A DNA stretch of 64,000 nucleotides from an uncultured Candidatus Saccharibacteria bacterium (GTDB lineage Bacteria > Patescibacteriota > UBA1384 > CAYGGE01). The translations under genes were made by a program, and so were the position numbers. Of the stretch, positions 4,551 through 40,502 are shown piece after piece (the first letter of the stretch is position 1; every line of letters begins with the position of its first letter). The notes beneath the pieces are model-generated. The model was not told where the DNA came from. It made no database searches and was given only the letters and a program-made list of their open reading frames with translations. The stretch covers positions 5,737-69,736 of the forward strand of contig CAYGGE010000002.1 of assembly GCA_964349485.1 (NCBI GenBank), written 5' to 3'.

Positions 4551-4579
4551 TTGACAAACAGTCTAAAAACTGCTATACT
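4551..4579 (+). promoter_or_regulatory. Sigma70-like promoter TTGACA-N17-TATACT upstream of the CAP-domain gene
   Basis: Read directly from the sequence. Confidence 0.5.
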
Positions 4580-4609
4580 TATTAGAGTAAACCCGAACAA
4601 AGAGCGAAT

Positions 4610-5266
4610 ATGATCCCGTGCCTAACCGGCAGGGGAATTTTTATATCGGAAATTACAAAAACTATGATCAACACTCAAACTCTACAATTTACCGACCAAC
4701 TGACGAAGATCCAGGAGAAAGCTCTGTTGGTGCTTTTAGTTATCCCGCTTGCCGTTTCGATCATTAACGCGACCTATTTAGTTCGTCCGGCCCAAGCTTT
4801 TGAAACGGCCAATCCTATTGAGGAACGACTGATTGACTTAACCAATGCCGAACGGGGACGTATTGGGCTACGAGCTTTAACCTTCAACTCAAAATTATCT
4901 ATCGCGGCCGAACAAAAGGCCACCGACATGTTAGCTAAGGGCTATTTCGATCACCAATCACCTGATGGCCGAGCACCTTGGGATTTCATTGAGAGTACTG
5001 GCTATATTTATCTCAAAGCTGGGGAGAACTTAGCCATCGACTTCCCGGAACTTAGTGAGGTTGTTCCTGCATGGATGGCTAGCCCAACCCACAAAGCCAA
5101 CATTGTCAAACCTGATTATGAAGAGATTGGTATTGCTCATGTACAAGGTAACTTTAATGGTCGCCAAACCACGGTTATTGTTCAAATGTTCGGTACCAAA
5201 CCAGTGACTACTGAGAAAGTGCTCAAAGCACTCGCTGAATCAATTAGTTCTCCCTTACCGTTCTAA
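4610..5266 (+). CDS. CAP/SCP (YkwD-like) domain secreted protein
   Basis: N-terminal hydrophobic segment. CAP motifs LTNAERGR...GYFDHQSPDG...GENLA...W.ASPTHKANI. Confidence 0.7.
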   Translation: MIPCLTGRGIFISEITKTMINTQTLQFTDQLTKIQEKALLVLLVIPLAVSIINATYLVRPAQAFETANPIEERLIDLTNAERGRIGLRALTFNSKLSIAAEQKATDMLAKGYFDHQSPDGRAPWDFIESTGYIYLKAGENLAIDFPELSEVVPAWMASPTHKANIVKPDYEEIGIAHVQGNFNGRQTTVIVQMFGTKPVTTEKVLKALAESISSPLPF

Positions 5267-6830: not shown

Positions 6831-6859
6831 TTTACAATAGTCAGCCAATAGGCTATAAT
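6831..6859 (+). promoter_or_regulatory. Near-consensus sigma70 promoter TTTACA-N17-TATAAT immediately downstream of glyQS
   Basis: Read directly from the sequence. Confidence 0.45.
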
Positions 6860-6888
6860 CATCAACACATTCCCTAATTTGGGTCTGT

Positions 6889-6930
6889 CCAAGGGAGGTC
6901 CTGCGGAGGGTGTCTTCCTTGGTTTTTTTC
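6889..6930 (+). terminator. Hairpin CCAAGGGAGG...CTTCCTTGG followed by TTTTTTTCTT. It is either the glyQS terminator or a leader attenuator.
   Basis: Read directly from the sequence. Confidence 0.5.
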
Positions 6931-7340
6931 TTAGACGTCCAGCCTGTGACAAGGTTGGCCGGCGGGGTGTTGAGCTCGTATGCATCCGCTTGCGAACTGA
7001 GCTTCACCCAAGGCCCGCACCTGGGTAGGTTGAGAATTGCACACCCTTTAGCCGTACTCCGGGGTGTTGCAAGGTGTAAACCCCTAGGTGCGGGCACGCA
7101 TTGACGCCGTTCGTTCGATGCGCCTTCATTGAGCAAACTCATGATTAGGCGATTATGCCATCGAACGACGACGGACACGCACTGACGGTAATCGGTGCGT
7201 TACCCTGAAGATTCCAGCTTGTGCGCCCCTCGCCAGCGAGCAGGGTTGAAGCGCGGCAGTCGAGTCAACGGGGTCCGTTTTCGGATCAATTGATCCAAGC
7301 TTAGCGCTCGTGTCACTGACACGAGCGTTCTGCGTTTTTA
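6931..7340 (+). ncRNA. GC-rich, highly structured non-coding segment (candidate ~400 nt RNA, family unknown) ending in a strong intrinsic terminator
   Basis: No credible ORF. Several long complementary helices: GCCCGCACCT/AGGTGCGGGC, TCGTTCGATG/CATCGAACGA, ACGCAC/GTGCGT, CCCTG/CAGGG. A 10-bp perfect hairpin CGCTCGTGTC-ACT-GACACGAGCG is followed by TTCTGCGTTTTT at 7305-7340. Confidence 0.4.
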
Positions 7341-7354
7341 GTGGAGTTATCCCC

Positions 7355-9306: not shown

Positions 9307-11031
9307 ATGAAACGTACGACAAGTGGACTCTCTGGTGCTCGCCTGGTTGTCTTGCAGGTAGCGACGGTCGTAATCACGTTCATCGTGATCGGCCGTCTTT
9401 TTGATCTATCGATAATCCGACATGCCAATGCTTTAATTACGGCAAAAAATCAATACGGGATCACCCAGACACTGCCTGCGACTAGAGGAATCATCGGTCT
9501 GCGCGACTTAAATGGGGGCAAGGACTATCCGGTCGCGATGAACGTTATCTCTTATCAGGTAGTGGCTGACCCGTTTCTGATTAAGGATCCACTGAAGGTC
9601 GCAGCTGTATTAGAGCCGGTGATCGGCATCTCGGTTAGTGATCTTCTGCCCAAACTATCTGATAAAAAGAAACGTTTCGTCATACTCAAAAAAAAGCTGG
9701 TAAAAGAAGACTCGAAAAAAGTTGATGACTTGAATCTACGAGGTATTAGTCTACAGCCAGTTGAGTCTCGACTATACCCAGAACTAACCTTAGCGGCTCA
9801 CACAATTGGTTTTGTCGATGCCAGTGGTGTAGGACGCTATGGGATTGAGAGTTTTTTTAACGAAGATCTGACAGGTTATGATGGCGAATTGGTCGGGGAG
9901 AAAGATGCCAAACGACGCATTATCAGTGAGGGTAAGTCAGCTAAGCCACGTGACGGTACAGTTATTACCTTGACTATCGATCGGAGTCTTCAGTTTATAG
10001 TTGAAAATCAATTACGCGAATCGCTTAAAAAATATGAAGCGGAGGGTGGTTCGGTGGTGATCATGGATGTTAAAACTGGCGCCATACTCGCACTGGCAAA
10101 CGAGCCGGGGTACGATCTGAACACGTTTAACGAGGTTCCTGCTGACCAACAAGAGCGCTTTATCAACCAAGCAGTCAGTGGAACATGGGAGCCGGGCTCA
10201 ATTTTCAAGACATTTACCCTGGCCGCCGCAATTGATCTCGGTCTGATTCAGCCTGACACCAAGGCTGATCTAGGTTGTAGCGCTAAAGTTGATGGCTTTG
10301 AGATACGTAACTCTCAAGACAAGTGTTATCCAACGCCAGACGTTACTCAAATCTTATCTGATTCGATTAACTTGGGAACGATATGGGCGGCCGATAAAAT
10401 AGGTAACCAGGACTTTGGTAAGTACATTTCAGACTTTGGCTTCGGCAGTAAGACGGGCATTGAACTACAGCCTGAGTCGACTGGTAAGGTAAGCGATAGT
10501 AACAAGTGGAAAAATGTTAATCGGGCGACCATCTCATTCGGCCAAGGCTTATCGGCTTCACCACTGCAAATAGTCGCCGCATATGCCTCAATAGGCAACG
10601 GTGGAAAGCTAATGCATCCTTATCTTGTCGCGAAGCGGGTAGACAGTAATGGCAAGGTCGTCGAGACAAAACCTCGCGAAGTTCGACAAGTTATTAAACC
10701 TGAAACAGCCGCCATGATGACCACCATGCTTGAGAAAGTGGTCACCGAGGGTCATGGCAAACGGGCTGCAGTTCGTGGTTATCGAATCGGTGGTAAAACG
10801 GGGACGGCTCAAGTAGTGGGAAAAGATGGCACTTACGAAGAAGATGCCCACATTGGCTCATTTGCTGGGATTTTCCCTGCTAATGAACCGCGCTTCGCGA
10901 TGATCGTAAAGCTTGATCGACCGAAGGCTGTCGAGTTTGCCGAGAGTTCCGCCGCACCAACCTTCAGTGAGATCGCCAAGTGGTTATTGCATTATGCCAA
11001 GGTGCCACCGACTGAAGTTGTATCACCATAA
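9307..11031 (+). CDS. ftsI: Penicillin-binding protein transpeptidase FtsI (PBP2/3 class)
   Basis: SIFK (SxxK), SDS and KTGTA motifs. N-terminal TM. Confidence 0.85.
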   Translation: MKRTTSGLSGARLVVLQVATVVITFIVIGRLFDLSIIRHANALITAKNQYGITQTLPATRGIIGLRDLNGGKDYPVAMNVISYQVVADPFLIKDPLKVAAVLEPVIGISVSDLLPKLSDKKKRFVILKKKLVKEDSKKVDDLNLRGISLQPVESRLYPELTLAAHTIGFVDASGVGRYGIESFFNEDLTGYDGELVGEKDAKRRIISEGKSAKPRDGTVITLTIDRSLQFIVENQLRESLKKYEAEGGSVVIMDVKTGAILALANEPGYDLNTFNEVPADQQERFINQAVSGTWEPGSIFKTFTLAAAIDLGLIQPDTKADLGCSAKVDGFEIRNSQDKCYPTPDVTQILSDSINLGTIWAADKIGNQDFGKYISDFGFGSKTGIELQPESTGKVSDSNKWKNVNRATISFGQGLSASPLQIVAAYASIGNGGKLMHPYLVAKRVDSNGKVVETKPREVRQVIKPETAAMMTTMLEKVVTEGHGKRAAVRGYRIGGKTGTAQVVGKDGTYEEDAHIGSFAGIFPANEPRFAMIVKLDRPKAVEFAESSAAPTFSEIAKWLLHYAKVPPTEVVSP

Positions 11032-11096: not shown

Positions 11097-12125
11097 ATGG
11101 AAGCAATCTTACTTGATACCAATGCCCTAACGCGCATCTTCGGTCTGACGGTTTTGTCATTTGTAACGTCCATGCTGATCACGCCGGCGTTTACTACCTT
11201 TCTATATAAAAACCGCTTAGGCAAGAAAATCCGCCAAACGGATTTTAATGAAAAAGCGGCGCCAATCTTCTATAAACTGCATAAGCACAAAACCAATACA
11301 CCGACGATGGGTGGATTGTTGATCTGGGGAGTCGCAGCTGTACTGACGATTATCTTTAACCTGTCGCGTCAGGCGACTTGGCTTCCTCTATTTGTCTTAG
11401 TGATGAGTGGGGTGATCGGTGCGATTGACGACCTCTACAATATTAACGGAATCGGACCAAATAATGGTGGACTTCGATTTCGACACAAATTACTGATCTA
11501 TCTGGTCATTGCGGTGATCGGTGCTTTATACTTTGCCTTCAAATTAGAATGGATATATCGCGGGATCCATATTCCTGGAGTAGGCGATATTGCTCTTGGC
11601 TATTGGTACGTCCCACTCTTTATCACGGTCTTAATCGGTACCAGTTTTGCGGTCAACCAAACAGATGGACTCGATGGCTTAGCCGGCGGATTACTGGTTA
11701 TGGCATTTATGGCTATGGGTGGTATTGCTTTCTTCCAGGGACAGTTTGGTCTGTCTGCTTTCGCCGGCACACTAGTCGGAGCGATCCTGGCGTTTCTCTG
11801 GTTCAATGTCCATCCGGCGCGCTTTTTTATGGGCGATACGGGTTCAATGGCTTTAGGCATGACCCTAGCCGTCATCGCCTTCCTGACGAACACCGTCTTC
11901 ATCTTACCAATCATCGGTTTCGTCTTTGTTATTGAGGCATTATCGACCATCATCCAGATCTTCTCTAAGAAATTCTTGAAGAAAAAAGTCTTTCTTTCCG
12001 CACCAATACATCACCATTTAGAAGCGATTGGCTGGACTGAGACACGAATAGTGGAACGGGCCTGGATTATCGGGGCAGTTCTTGCAGTTTTTGGTCTAGT
12101 CTTGGCCCTAGTGGGTCGAGGCTAG
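11097..12125 (+). CDS. mraY: Phospho-N-acetylmuramoyl-pentapeptide transferase MraY
   Basis: Polytopic membrane protein with DDxxN and NQTDGLDGLAGG motifs of GT family 4. dcw context. Confidence 0.85.
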   Translation: MEAILLDTNALTRIFGLTVLSFVTSMLITPAFTTFLYKNRLGKKIRQTDFNEKAAPIFYKLHKHKTNTPTMGGLLIWGVAAVLTIIFNLSRQATWLPLFVLVMSGVIGAIDDLYNINGIGPNNGGLRFRHKLLIYLVIAVIGALYFAFKLEWIYRGIHIPGVGDIALGYWYVPLFITVLIGTSFAVNQTDGLDGLAGGLLVMAFMAMGGIAFFQGQFGLSAFAGTLVGAILAFLWFNVHPARFFMGDTGSMALGMTLAVIAFLTNTVFILPIIGFVFVIEALSTIIQIFSKKFLKKKVFLSAPIHHHLEAIGWTETRIVERAWIIGAVLAVFGLVLALVGRG

Positions 12126-12184
12126 TCTCTCATTAATTTATCTTTTAGGACAATGATTGGTAGTCAATAGTAAGAATATGCTTA

Positions 12185-12213
12185 TTGACAAGTAGCTTGC
12201 AATAGTGTATTAT
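12185..12213 (+). promoter_or_regulatory. Sigma70 promoter TTGACA-N17-TATTAT with an extended -10 TG
   Basis: Read directly from the sequence. Confidence 0.55.
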
Positions 12214-12236
12214 GGATACAAGAGCAATTGAAGATC

Positions 12237-12266
12237 CCGTTCGCGACCAAGCGACGGGTTTTTTGT
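12237..12266 (+). terminator. Hairpin CCCGTTCGC...GCGACGGG plus TTTTTTGTT about 25 nt after the promoter (attenuator or terminator)
   Basis: Read directly from the sequence. Confidence 0.45.
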
Positions 12267-12379
12267 TACGTAACCTGACCGCAATGGACCTTAACAACTC
12301 GTAACCAGTAATAGCATTTATATTCAATGCCATATCTCAACTGTGGCACTGTTATTCAATCAGCAACTAAGGAGATATC

Positions 12380-12556
12380 ATGAGTAAATTAACTACTGAA
12401 CCAGTGATCGATACCTGTGAGACCTGTCAAAATTGGGGAGCCAATCAGTCTAAGAAACATGACGACAAATCTCACCCAGTGGTCGTCATAGATGAAAATA
12501 AGGAGCCAAGCGATGAGCAAGTTGTTCCAGTATATATCGAGAAAGCTTCGGTTTAA
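12380..12556 (+). CDS. Small CxxC protein (58 aa), not in the ORF track
   Basis: Strong RBS TAAGGAGATATC-ATG. MSKLTTEPVIDTCETCQNWG... A terminator follows. Confidence 0.5.
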   Translation: MSKLTTEPVIDTCETCQNWGANQSKKHDDKSHPVVVIDENKEPSDEQVVPVYIEKASV

Positions 12557-12606
12557 AAATCTGCATCTTACTGTCATCGAGGACCGAATGCGACTTACTT
12601 AAGGCA

Positions 12607-12634
12607 AAAAGACCCATTGCGGGTCTTTTTGTTT
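12607..12634 (+). terminator. Intrinsic terminator AAGACCC-ATTGC-GGGTCTTTTTGTTT
   Basis: Read directly from the sequence. Confidence 0.6.
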
Positions 12635-12660
12635 ACCTGTAATCAAGGTATAGTACGACT

Positions 12661-13446
12661 ATGATCCAATCCAAATTATTGCTTCAGTTTCCTGAGCTTG
12701 TACATGGTTATTCCGACCGATTAGATGGCGATATGGGAGCAAAGCGATTAGCTGGTGAAACCTATGGTGCAAACGAACAAGCGAAGTGGCTGGCTAATCG
12801 ACAGCGCATCTTTGATCGGCTGGGTATTCCAACGAGTCAAGTGATATTAGCCAGGCAGACCCATAGTGCCACCGTGGAGTCGCTCAATCTAACACATATG
12901 GGTAAGGCACATGATAATCTAGCCACTTTTGCCTCGGCCGATAGCTTCATCCTGACCGATCCCGATATCTTTGCCACTGTTTTTACTGCCGATTGCCTAC
13001 CTATCTTTTGTTACGAGCCGAAAAAACGTATCGTCGCGGCAATGCATGCCGGGTGGCGGGGGATTGCCTCGGGGATAATCAAGACATCTATTATGCAGAT
13101 CAGATCATCGGGTGGCATGATAGAAGACTTACGTGTCTGGATTGGGCCCCATATCAAGGTCTGTCACTACGATGCCGATCCAACAGTCGACAGTTTTGTC
13201 GAAAAACAGAAGGCATTTCAAAATGCGCCCGGGATTCTTATCGAGAAGGGTAATAAGAAAATGATTGATCTAACTGCCCTTGCTGTGAGACAATTAACTG
13301 AAGCTAGTGTATTTGATCAACATCTTGAGATTGGCGATTGCACTGTTTGCGAAAGAGAAAAATATTACTCCTATCATGCGGTCCACGGTAAGAACATTGG
13401 TCGGATGATGGGGGTTATTGGCGTGAGGAACTCCGATGGATCTTGA
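12661..13446 (+). CDS. pgeF: YfiH/PgeF family (DUF152) purine nucleoside phosphorylase/peptidoglycan editing factor
   Basis: QTHSATV, TADCLPIF, HAGWRG and CHYD motifs. Confidence 0.75.
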   Translation: MIQSKLLLQFPELVHGYSDRLDGDMGAKRLAGETYGANEQAKWLANRQRIFDRLGIPTSQVILARQTHSATVESLNLTHMGKAHDNLATFASADSFILTDPDIFATVFTADCLPIFCYEPKKRIVAAMHAGWRGIASGIIKTSIMQIRSSGGMIEDLRVWIGPHIKVCHYDADPTVDSFVEKQKAFQNAPGILIEKGNKKMIDLTALAVRQLTEASVFDQHLEIGDCTVCEREKYYSYHAVHGKNIGRMMGVIGVRNSDGS

Positions 13447-14809
13447 AGGGAAAAAAGTTGCAGTGATCGGTTACGGTGTGAACAATGCCGAATTGCCACA
13501 ATATTTGAAAAATCAAGGCGCTATCGTCACGATCTGCGACGAAAATGAACTATTAGCTACCGATGACCCAGAACTGTCGTATCAATTGGGTAGTGATTAT
13601 CTAAACAATCTCGAGCGGTTTGAGATGATTTTTCGGACTCCTGGCCTTTCGTACTACACTAAAGAACTGCAAGTCGCAAAGCAGGCAGGATCAACACTTT
13701 CCAGCCAAACAGATCTCTTTATCCGGCATTTTCCGGGAAAAGTTATCGGCGTGACAGGAACCAAGGGTAAAGGGACAACGGCCAGTCTAATTTACGCTAT
13801 TTTGCTCGAGGCAAAACAGCAAGGTGAACTTGATGGATCGATCTATCTTGCTGGCAATATTGGCACCTCCCCTCTTCAATTTCTTGATGCGGCCGGAGCC
13901 CAGGATTGGGCAGTGCTTGAGCTATCTAGTTTCCAGCTCCAAGGACTCGAAATCAGTCCACAGATAGCCGTGATACTTGACGTCACTGTCGATCATCTTG
14001 ACTATCATCGTGACGAAGCCGAGTATCTATCCGCCAAGAAGAATATCGTCCGGTATCAAAAACCTGAAGATGCTGTGGTACTCAATATCGACTCATTGAC
14101 CAGCATACTATTTGCTGAGGAGACACCGGCTGTGACTTACTTTTTTTCGCGAAGAAAAACGGTTGATCAAGGGACTTTTGTTAACATGCAGTCAGGTCAA
14201 ATTGTACTCCGACTTCCCGAACGTGAGGATTCAACAATTTGCGAGACTAAGGACGTACAACTAGTCGGGGAGTACAATCTTAGCAATATCACTGCGGCAG
14301 TCACTGCCGGTGCACTTGCTGGGGCGAGTAACAAGAGTGTTCGTACGGCAATTACCTCGTTTCATGGGCTACCACACCGTTTGGAGCTCATCGCCACAAA
14401 ATCGGGGATTCGTTATTACGATGATTCATTCGCAACCACACCTGATGCGGCAATCGGTGCGATTGCCGCGTTCTCCGAGCCAATTACCCTGATTGCCGGG
14501 GGATCGTGGAAAGGTGTTGACTATAGCGAGCTAATAGAGACGATTAACACTAGTACAGTTACGACCGTAATATGTCTAGGGCCAGAAGGTCAGCGAATCA
14601 AGAAAATGCTTGATGAGCTGGGTTCTACTATACAGGCTGTCACCGTTGCAGGCACAATGGCGGACATTGTTTCTGTAGCCCGTAGTGTTACAAGCCCGAG
14701 AGGAATTGTATTGCTCTCACCGGCTGCTGCCAGTTTCGACATGTTTAGAAACGCCACTGATCGGGGAGATCAGTTTAAGCAAGCCGTTTTGGCTTTACCA
14801 AACGATTAA
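13436..14809 (+). CDS. murD: UDP-N-acetylmuramoylalanine--D-glutamate ligase MurD
   Basis: KVAVIGYGVNNA N-terminal fold. GVTGTKGKGTT P-loop. dcw order. Confidence 0.85.
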   Translation: MDLEGKKVAVIGYGVNNAELPQYLKNQGAIVTICDENELLATDDPELSYQLGSDYLNNLERFEMIFRTPGLSYYTKELQVAKQAGSTLSSQTDLFIRHFPGKVIGVTGTKGKGTTASLIYAILLEAKQQGELDGSIYLAGNIGTSPLQFLDAAGAQDWAVLELSSFQLQGLEISPQIAVILDVTVDHLDYHRDEAEYLSAKKNIVRYQKPEDAVVLNIDSLTSILFAEETPAVTYFFSRRKTVDQGTFVNMQSGQIVLRLPEREDSTICETKDVQLVGEYNLSNITAAVTAGALAGASNKSVRTAITSFHGLPHRLELIATKSGIRYYDDSFATTPDAAIGAIAAFSEPITLIAGGSWKGVDYSELIETINTSTVTTVICLGPEGQRIKKMLDELGSTIQAVTVAGTMADIVSVARSVTSPRGIVLLSPAAASFDMFRNATDRGDQFKQAVLALPND

Positions 14810-38981: not shown

Positions 38982-39033
38982 GGGGCTTCATGGGCAAAAA
39001 AAGACCTTGCTTGGTCGCAATAGTAAAGTTTTT

Positions 39034-39109
39034 TGGTCAGGGTGGCGGGGCTCGAACCCGCGACCTCCGGACCCCCAGCCCGACGCGCTACCAACTGCGC
39101 TACACCCTG
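39034..39109 (-). tRNA. tRNA-Pro (anticodon GGG), CCA encoded
   Basis: Reverse complement CAGGGTG...CACCCTG-A-CCA. Anticodon loop CTGGGGG. Confidence 0.8.
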
Positions 39110-40432: not shown

Positions 40433-40457
40433 TCTAGTTCATTAGAAAATCGGCAAC

Positions 40458-40487
40458 TAAAAAATCCCGTTTGCACGGGATTTTTTA
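40458..40487. terminator. Bidirectional intrinsic terminator AAAAAATCCCG-TTTGCA-CGGGATTTTTT
   Basis: Read directly from the sequence. Confidence 0.6.
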
Positions 40488-40502
40488 GTTTGAAAAGCCT
40501 GA

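Follow-up and report, generated by a model that had tools for sequence, protein, structure and literature searches.

The DNA analysed here (the window) is a 64,000-nucleotide (nt) stretch of contig CAYGGE010000002.1, from an uncultured Candidatus Saccharibacteria bacterium (assembly GCA_964349485.1). It carries a cell-wall gene cluster in the order ftsI (9307-11031), mraY (11097-12125), pgeF/YfiH (Cu-oxidase_4; 12661-13446), murD (13436-14809), ftsW and murG, and between mraY and pgeF lies the subject of this report: a cassette that consists of a near-consensus promoter, a hairpin with a U-run placed right at the predicted start of transcription (T1), two small overlapping open reading frames (ORF-A and ORF-B), and a second hairpin with a U-run (T2). 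The initial annotation of the window had described a self-contained micro-operon at this place (promoter, hairpin and U-run, an ORF supported by a Shine-Dalgarno (SD) sequence, terminator). That description has stood: the elements occur together as a conserved block in 11 sequences, and in one of these (L102) the gene in front is not mraY. The features are as follows:

12185-12190, plus strand: -35 element TTGACA, invariant in 10 of the 10 sequences in which the region is visible
12208-12213, plus strand: -10 element TATTAT, after a 17-nt spacer; together with the -35 element it matches 11 of 12 consensus positions
about 12220 (an A), plus strand: predicted start site, 7 nt 3' of the -10 element, placed from the sequence
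12220-12267, plus strand: T1, with an A-rich tract (12220-12235), a hairpin (12236-12258) and U6 (12259-12264), followed by GUU
12265-12379, plus strand: leader from T1 to ORF-A, unstructured and with no conserved internal promoter
12369-12374, plus strand: SD sequence AAGGAG of ORF-A, 5 nt before its ATG
12380-12556, plus strand: ORF-A, 58 amino acids (aa), acidic (net charge -5) and predicted to be disordered
12500-12505, plus strand: SD sequence AAGGAG of ORF-B, within codons of ORF-A and 7 nt before the ORF-B ATG
12513-12602, plus strand: ORF-B, 29 aa (MSKLFQYISRKLRFKNLHLTVIEDRMRLT), basic (net charge +5), in the +1 frame relative to ORF-A and overlapping its 3' end by 44 nt
12603-12634, plus strand: T2, GGCAAAAA-GACCC-ATTGC-GGGTC-TTTTTGTTT, minimum free energy -18.9 kcal/mol, z = -3.8
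12649-12663, plus strand: putative restart element of pgeF, with -10 element TATAGT at 12649-12654, 6 nt before the ATG at 12661, and no SD sequence

The DNA of relatives was obtained using MraY and PgeF as handles. The best MraY matches among species-representative genomes come from metagenome-assembled genomes labelled Berkelbacteria or Saccharibacteria (89, 81, 79 and 63% identity), and the 58-aa peptide is found in identical form on 7 contigs of the same species. The set of cassette-bearing sequences numbers 11: the window, L005/L096, L095 (a strain variant of L005), L105 (a truncated contig), L098, L099, L100, L101, L102, L104 and L106; the 5' part of the cassette is visible in 10 of the 11. 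The order promoter, T1, ORF-A recurs in the 10 further sequences, and in 10 of 10 where the 5' part can be seen. With the whole block recurring in these relatives at the same spacer length and the same distance from -10 element to hairpin, the arrangement is beyond chance; its holders belong to a narrow Berkelbacteria-like clade of the Candidate Phyla Radiation (CPR). The site of the cassette across relatives is the mraY|murD junction. Its structure is also kept in L102, where the gene in front encodes an 879-aa protein, and in L106 (assembly GCA_034680565.1, 2900-3310), where a 136-aa ORF without a Pfam match stands in place of pgeF and is followed by murD; the link between cassette and pgeF is therefore not absolute.

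Promoters of this quality are scarce: only 5 such sites exist in the window, both strands counted. All 10 visible sequences have a spacer of exactly 17 nt and a -10 element that reads TAnnAT or TATACT, a combination that fits the sequence definition of a sigma-70-type promoter (-35 element, 16-18 nt spacer, -10 element). The initial annotation had written it as TTGACA-N17-TGtTATTAT; hexamers and spacing are as given there, but the TG abuts the hexamer (GTG-TATTAT) and there is no extended -10 element in the TGn register, as a promoter scan agrees. Transcription would be expected to start at about 12220. The A-rich tract begins 6 nt after the -10 element in all 10 sequences and is followed by a GC-rich hairpin, five or six U, and usually GUU; in the window the hairpin begins 22 nt after the -10 element and about 16 nt after the predicted start. 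Across relatives, on the other hand, anything from 0 to more than 150 nt separates the stop codon of the gene in front from the -35 element. Promoter and hairpin, fixed relative to one another and movable relative to the gene in front, are therefore one unit.

In five relatives the spacer between the hexamers is itself conserved, as AACGG(T/C)CG(T/G)AAA (AACGGYCGKAAA; L005 4015-4027, L095 2622-2634, L099 2547-2559, L101 2592-2604, L102 2600-2612), with a near-palindrome, ACGGCCGT, inside it; the PgeF proteins of these five are only about 40-47% identical to that of the window. The motif occurs on no other promoter of the fetched loci, is replaced by other sequence in the window, L098, L100, L104 and L106, and may be an operator or other protein site. 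Its conservation, together with the fact that three of the five best promoters of the window (4551, 6831 and 12185) run into a hairpin and U-run within about 65 nt, hints at regulation.

The hairpin of T1, CCCGT(T)CGC-GACCAA-GCGACGGG, has a CCCGT/ACGGG base, a bulged T at 12241, a CGC/GCG top and the loop GACCAA. T1 as a whole has a minimum free energy of -16.6 kcal/mol and a z of -3.4 (ViennaRNA; z of orthologues, -3.3 to -6.0), and the hairpin alone, with 8 base pairs and one bulge, -12.6 kcal/mol; the hairpin and U6 reported shortly after the promoter are thus present, at 12236-12264. All nine distinct versions of T1 form hairpins of 8-11 base pairs (hairpin alone, -11 to -16 kcal/mol). The CCCG/CGGG base is kept in eight of the nine, and the upper helix is lineage-specific in sequence yet paired. 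(A note on counting: pairs were taken from individual folds because MAFFT/RNAalifold mis-aligned the variable upper helix.) T2, the terminator that had been noted after the 58-aa ORF, is likewise there; its arms stand around the loop as GGCAAAAAGACCC-ATTGC-GGGTCTTTTTGTTT, and it is conserved, with compensatory changes in the stem, in L005 and all other relatives. Both elements, a stable GC-rich hairpin followed by a U-run, have the sequence of an intrinsic terminator, and T1 may be presumed from these properties to terminate efficiently. A simple terminator scan listed neither of them; this is attributed to the bulge in T1 and to the A/U extension of the T2 stem, which uses up the T-run, and not to weak hairpins. 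One observation on T2 stands by itself: in four relatives (L098 2960-2990, L100 2200-2230, L101 2970-3000, L104 2115-2150) the loop UCUCAC(G) is kept while the stems covary, which suggests that the loop is constrained there beyond the needs of termination.

Is T1 anything more than a terminator? Its form, GCAAAAA-stem-UUUUUUG, recurs in T2 and in ordinary terminators at gene ends of the window (40447-40491, 38988-39038), which makes T1 a canonical terminator of this genome rather than a special RNA family. Two covariance models built on T1 (R1 and R2) recover the orthologues and also ordinary terminators (24.7 bits for window 40447-40491), and the candidacy of T1 as a distinct RNA family was dropped on that account. 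The Rfam scan that the initial annotation had proposed yielded no family for the cassette: with 4227 models at gathering thresholds the whole window gives only transfer RNAs, and at E <= 10 the segment 12050-12750 gives only SSRC38 (17.8 against 80 bits) and PyrD leader (16.3 against 47 bits).

Downstream of T1 the leader (12265-12379) has a folding z of +0.67. It measures 115 nt from U-run to ORF-A in the window, close to the approximately 110 nt first estimated, and 49-122 nt in relatives; L005 lacks about 60 nt of it. A consensus scan of 12126-12660 of the window finds no other promoter-like site on the plus strand. With no such site between T1 and ORF-A, and with an interval of only 49-55 nt in L102 and L005, read-through of T1 is therefore the simplest route to ORF-A and ORF-B. 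(Certain short leader motifs, GACCGC, ACCTTAACAA and ATCTCAAC, were considered as signals and set aside as too frequent elsewhere.)

That ORF-A is a real protein-coding gene under purifying selection is indicated by several features of its sequence. The ratio of nonsynonymous to synonymous polymorphism (pN/pS) is 0.23-0.42 among the window, L005 and L105, insertions and deletions are in frame, and L005 and L095 differ at 9 synonymous positions and at no non-synonymous one. The initial annotation had allowed that the peptide might not be conserved and had credited the ORF with a strong ribosome-binding site; the peptide is conserved, and an SD-like GGAG or AGGA stands in front of ORF-A in relatives too, at its weakest in L104. 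The homologues are 50-77 aa long, with net charges of -4 to -13, and have in common (I/L)DGI near the N-terminus and (V/A)(P/A)VYxQ near the C-terminus. The protein is predicted to be disordered apart from that short conserved C-terminal motif. What the homologues do not share is cysteine: the window clade and L102 have CxxC, L099, L101 and two family members found by database search (P0023 and P0024) have CxCxxC, and L098, L100 and L104 have none. With IDGI and VPVYxQ conserved and cysteine dispensable, 'CxxC protein', the name first given to ORF-A, is therefore the wrong family label; nor does the family show the conserved cysteine pairs of a zinc ribbon or other small CxxC metal-binding protein, the window itself having a single CxxC.

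The family is small. A word-indexed protein search with the 58-aa peptide returns only itself; a search with an alignment of eight ORF-A sequences returns those eight and one extra; an exhaustive hidden Markov model search of 1.84 billion representative proteins returns about 10 family members, P0023 and P0024 being the only additions. A 710-aa repeat protein, P0022, was considered as a relative and rejected as spurious (only a Cys-Gln-Asn stretch matched). Back-translated ORF-A peptide motifs gave 407 pattern matches in JGI metagenomes, none of them confirmed, and a scan of JGI viral contigs was empty. Pfam, NCBIfam, PADLOC, PHROGs and PDB sequences contain no significant match for the cassette proteins; the best library matches (DUF7582, E = 0.011, 15.5 against 27 bits; phrog_10867, E = 0.042; angiostatin, E = 0.0066) were taken as chance.

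ORF-B is, by its sequence, a second gene, which the first reading of the window overlooked. Nine of the 11 sequences have it, each time in the +1 frame and with 44-56 nt of overlap with ORF-A; wherever it exists a strong SD sequence stands 4-7 nt before its ATG (weakened to AAGGAA in L095), while L100 and L101 lack both ORF-B and its internal SD sequence. Conservation falls on a hydrophobic stretch and the D-R after it, both of them 3' of the ORF-A stop codon. Synonymous codons turn over (R as CGA, AGA or CGG; D as GAC or GAT; also L) and pN/pS is 0.33-0.42. Frame conservation past the overlap and the separate SD sequence thus mark ORF-B as protein-coding and under purifying selection. The family is 29-35 aa long and its net charge is +3 to +6, opposite to that of ORF-A in every genome. 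Profile searches of six-frame translations find no ORF-B elsewhere in 866 kb of CPR DNA. Two further candidates were examined in this region and discarded: ORF-B as a remnant of the N-terminal part of PgeF (0.2% probability by profile-profile comparison), and an antisense promoter, TTTAAA-17-TATACT, on the minus strand inside the ORFs, which owes its sequence to the PVY codons as the window has them and is not kept in relatives.

How, then, might the cassette work? The reading put forward here, which we hold tentatively and at somewhat less than an even chance, is that of an autonomous, insulated cassette: a sensor-less terminator abutting its promoter, then two overlapping small genes reached by read-through. 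The near-consensus, housekeeping-type promoter would fire at about 12220 and the transcript would open with the A-tract of T1; most polymerases would stop at about 12262-12267 and release a hairpin RNA of about 45 nt. T1 would equally block transcription reading through from mraY. The minority of polymerases passing T1 would make an mRNA of about 400 nt ending at T2; their passage would be either a constitutive leak or factor-dependent antitermination, in neither case with an RNA sensor. The mRNA would be translated into acidic, disordered ORF-A with its VPVYxQ motif and, from its own SD sequence in the +1 frame, into basic ORF-B, while pgeF-murD expression would restart from a leaderless promoter. 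ORF-A and ORF-B would accordingly depend on read-through of T1, and their proteins may act together. In this form the cassette is, as far as its sequence tells, lineage-specific, with a plain, sensorless terminator leader and two genes rather than one. One can go further and suppose a true switch, opened by a DNA- or hairpin-binding protein or by polymerase speed and nucleoside triphosphate pools, that controls two proteins modulating the MraY-PgeF-MurD step by which this ultra-small CPR bacterium makes its peptidoglycan precursors. This is an unlikely elaboration; candidates for what would open such a switch are a factor on the AACGGYCGKAAA spacer and the basic ORF-B peptide itself, as an antiterminator of the arginine-rich type.

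Several observations weigh against the read-through cassette. 1) A strong promoter running into a strong terminator wastes transcription, unless something depends on the short RNA or on a regulator; the analysis turned up no regulator. 2) The longer leaders contain weak internal promoter candidates, found by eye: TATATT at 12319-12324 of the window and TTAACA-16-CATATT in L098. 3) ORF-B is missing from two of the 11 sequences, and is therefore not essential to the cassette. 4) AlphaFold2, given 9 ORF-A sequences, finds no fold (pLDDT 61, pTM 0.16).

The plainest rival has T1 as no more than the terminator of the upstream mraY operon, with a promoter fallen by chance between stop codon and terminator. 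T1 does have the form of an ordinary terminator, and there is no other between the mraY stop codon and T1 in the window, L005, L099, L100, L101 and L104. Yet a separate strong hairpin and U-run (z = -5.75) lies after mraY and ahead of the promoter in L098, the corresponding position in L106 contains a long inverted repeat (by eye only), the upstream gene of L102 is a different one altogether, and promoter-T1 spacing is fixed where stop-promoter spacing is not. Moreover, the cassette-free relatives L006, L007 and L103 pass from mraY directly to murD or pgeF across gaps of 37-63 nt with no terminator at all. The initial annotation had named a mere mraY terminator as what would undo its proposal, and we judge this very unlikely. 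It had also suggested attenuation, and a leader that senses a metabolite or a transfer RNA, or a classical attenuator working by alternative folds or a leader peptide, would indeed share the layout of promoter, hairpin with U-run, and gene. Such a leader is hardly credible here: only about 16 nt lie 5' of the hairpin, they pair with the U-run rather than with the 5' arm, and no alternative antiterminator is to be had from the rest of the leader, which is unstructured and partly deleted in L005; Rfam, as already stated, offers no family. A leader peptide fares no better. The sole leader ORF (UUG at 12228) changes frame in L005 through a loop insertion or deletion, is lost in L095 (UUG to UAA) and is thus not conserved; L098 has none.

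A more serious rival, possible if on the doubtful side, makes the RNA of about 45 nt that ends at T1 the functional product, a hairpin small RNA (sRNA) or a protein-binding RNA with its own strong promoter, the small ORFs being separate or secondary. Its likes would be StxS, which arises by early termination at PR'-tR', and sRNAs that have a promoter of their own but use the terminator of a gene. The predicted transcript is the best-conserved intergenic stretch between the window and L005 (49 of 51 columns identical), whereas the sequence on either side, and that of the promoter spacer, is scrambled; the promoter is near-consensus, T1 looks strong, and RNAs left behind by promoter-proximal termination can gain functions in trans (PMC7547250). 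What counts against it is largely the RNA itself, predicted to be one long hairpin that is almost fully self-paired, since the U-run plus GUU finds its partner in the A-rich 5' tract. The only free seed is a loop of 4-6 nt, which is not conserved; the 5' tract differs by lineage (AAGAGCAAUUGAAGA, AAGCAAACAAAA, AUUGAGAAAGAGAAA); and GCAA with an A-tract is general among this genome's terminators. Nor does the promoter-T1 unit ever occur apart from ORF-A, in 866 kb of related DNA or (by exact seed) in JGI metagenomes, where the exact 19-nt 5' tract has 10 matches, all of them chance and none with a hairpin after it. A further proposal deals with what the proteins do and can hold together with the read-through cassette: ORF-A and ORF-B as a toxin-antitoxin-like or inhibitor/partner pair, in which the acidic, disordered protein neutralises a small, basic, amphipathic peptide. 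T1 would then keep expression low because ORF-B is harmful, possibly to the envelope or to MraY/MurD-linked steps. The opposite charges in every genome, the overlapping and translationally linked genes with the acidic partner first, the predicted disorder of ORF-A outside its C-terminal motif, the tight gating of transcription and the constant location at the mraY|murD junction all speak for a pair. The absence of any match to toxin, antitoxin or defence families in the libraries named above speaks against it, as do the lack of a DNA-binding domain in ORF-A, unlike type II antitoxins, and the persistence of ORF-A without ORF-B in L100 and L101 (orphan antitoxins are possible but awkward). On balance the pair is quite unlikely.

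Known systems resemble the cassette in part. Type II toxin-antitoxin loci and dual-coding small ORFs likewise have overlapping genes, an acidic first and a basic second product, and tight transcriptional control, but the cassette products are far smaller (50-77 and 29-35 aa), and the type II overlap is a 1-4 nt stop/start junction where that of the cassette is 44-56 nt in the +1 frame. Classical attenuators (trp and pyrBI leader peptides, riboswitches, T-boxes, RAT and ANTAR systems) also place a terminator between promoter and coding region; the cassette differs in having no aptamer, no conserved leader peptide, no alternative fold, and no two-hairpin ANTAR or RAT-like element. DapZ and MicL are sRNAs of the 3' untranslated region type, with their own promoter and a terminator shared with the upstream gene. 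Like the cassette they have a promoter 5' of a terminator able to end the preceding transcript, and a short 5' tract followed by hairpin and U-tail. In the cassette, however, the 5' tract measures only about 16 nt; it is rich in A and variable, and would by prediction pair with the U-tail of the same RNA. Small ORFs follow the unit in every case, and the upstream gene of some relatives has its own terminator.

The closest parallel in layout is the lambdoid PR'-tR' unit, a constitutive promoter terminated at once and opened by the Q antiterminator, whose short '6S'/StxS RNA has become a regulator (PMC7547250). In both cases a strong promoter is followed immediately by an intrinsic terminator, the default product is a short hairpin-ended RNA, and the genes are reached by read-through. 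The cassette lacks what defines a Q-type antitermination unit: there is no Q-like antiterminator gene nearby (the neighbours are ftsI, mraY, pgeF and murD) and no -10-like pause element (TAnnnT) in the first 15 transcribed nt (by eye). T1, moreover, starts at +1 where the lambdoid terminator lies tens of nt downstream, and the cassette sits in a chromosomal cell-wall cluster, not in a phage. The AACGGYCGKAAA spacer of the five relatives could take the part of a protein site, but it is absent from the window. Premature-termination structures in 5' untranslated regions have also been proposed to tune about 29 genes of Mycoplasma pneumoniae (PMC6721554). That organism shares with the present one a small genome and few regulators; there is no sequence relationship.

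CPR bacteria (Patescibacteria) have tiny genomes and few recognisable regulators, and there is no genetics for them; conserved non-coding architecture is therefore one of the few views of their gene control. The cassette would provide a clean and testable case of a consensus promoter whose output a terminator gates without any sensor, along with two small-protein families not recognised before, one of which lies concealed in an overlapping frame; standard annotation misses or half-calls both. Sitting where the mraY-murD cell-wall operon would otherwise be unbroken, the cassette hints at a modulator of envelope synthesis peculiar to the lineage. If the sensor-less switch were true, the gating seen at 4551 and 6831 could mean a general, transcription-factor-poor manner of regulating genes in these organisms; if the cassette is no more than an insulator that leaks, set around two accessory peptides, it amounts to a useful correction of the annotation and changes nothing in the field.

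Beyond T2, the -10 element of pgeF stands so near its ATG, and without an SD sequence, that a leaderless pgeF mRNA is therefore predicted for these CPR genomes on the strength of the spacing. TATAGT or TATAAT at 6 nt before ATG is found in the window, L005, L098, L099 and L105, often with TGn in front of the hexamer, and the other pgeF-bearing relatives have a -10-like hexamer just 5' of the pgeF start as well. In L008 (Berkelbacteria GW2011_GWE1_39_12) pgeF lies behind an unrelated 380-nt mraY-pgeF spacer, in which there is neither ORF-A nor ORF-B. That spacer contains, at 5010-5200, two or three copies of a ATTAAAGCAATCAGGAA-like repeat and a terminator of its own.

The two other promoters of the window that run into a hairpin deserve description. 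The initial annotation had noticed the same layout after glyQS, which corresponds to window 6831-7345: the promoter TTTACA-17-TATAAT (6831-6859, plus strand) is followed by a hairpin with U7 (6889-6930) and then by an ORF-less stretch of 415 nt with a folding energy of -194.8 kcal/mol (z = -6.8), which ends, just 5' of mraZ, in a strong hairpin with U5 (about 7297-7340). The segment matches no Rfam family even at E <= 10, is not a transfer-messenger RNA, and is a candidate for a novel structured RNA. At 4551-4665 (plus strand), TTGACA-17-TATACT is followed by the hairpin GATCCCGTGCC-TAACC-GGCAGGGGAA with U5 (4612-4645) and then by the ATG at 4665 of an ORF for a membrane-anchored protein of about 200 aa, which we read as possibly CAP/SCP-like. 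Were translation to begin at the in-frame ATG at 4610, which has AAGAG 5 nt before it, that hairpin would fall inside the coding region. The T1 covariance model scores only 11.7 bits at 4598-4646, which does not show homology to T1.

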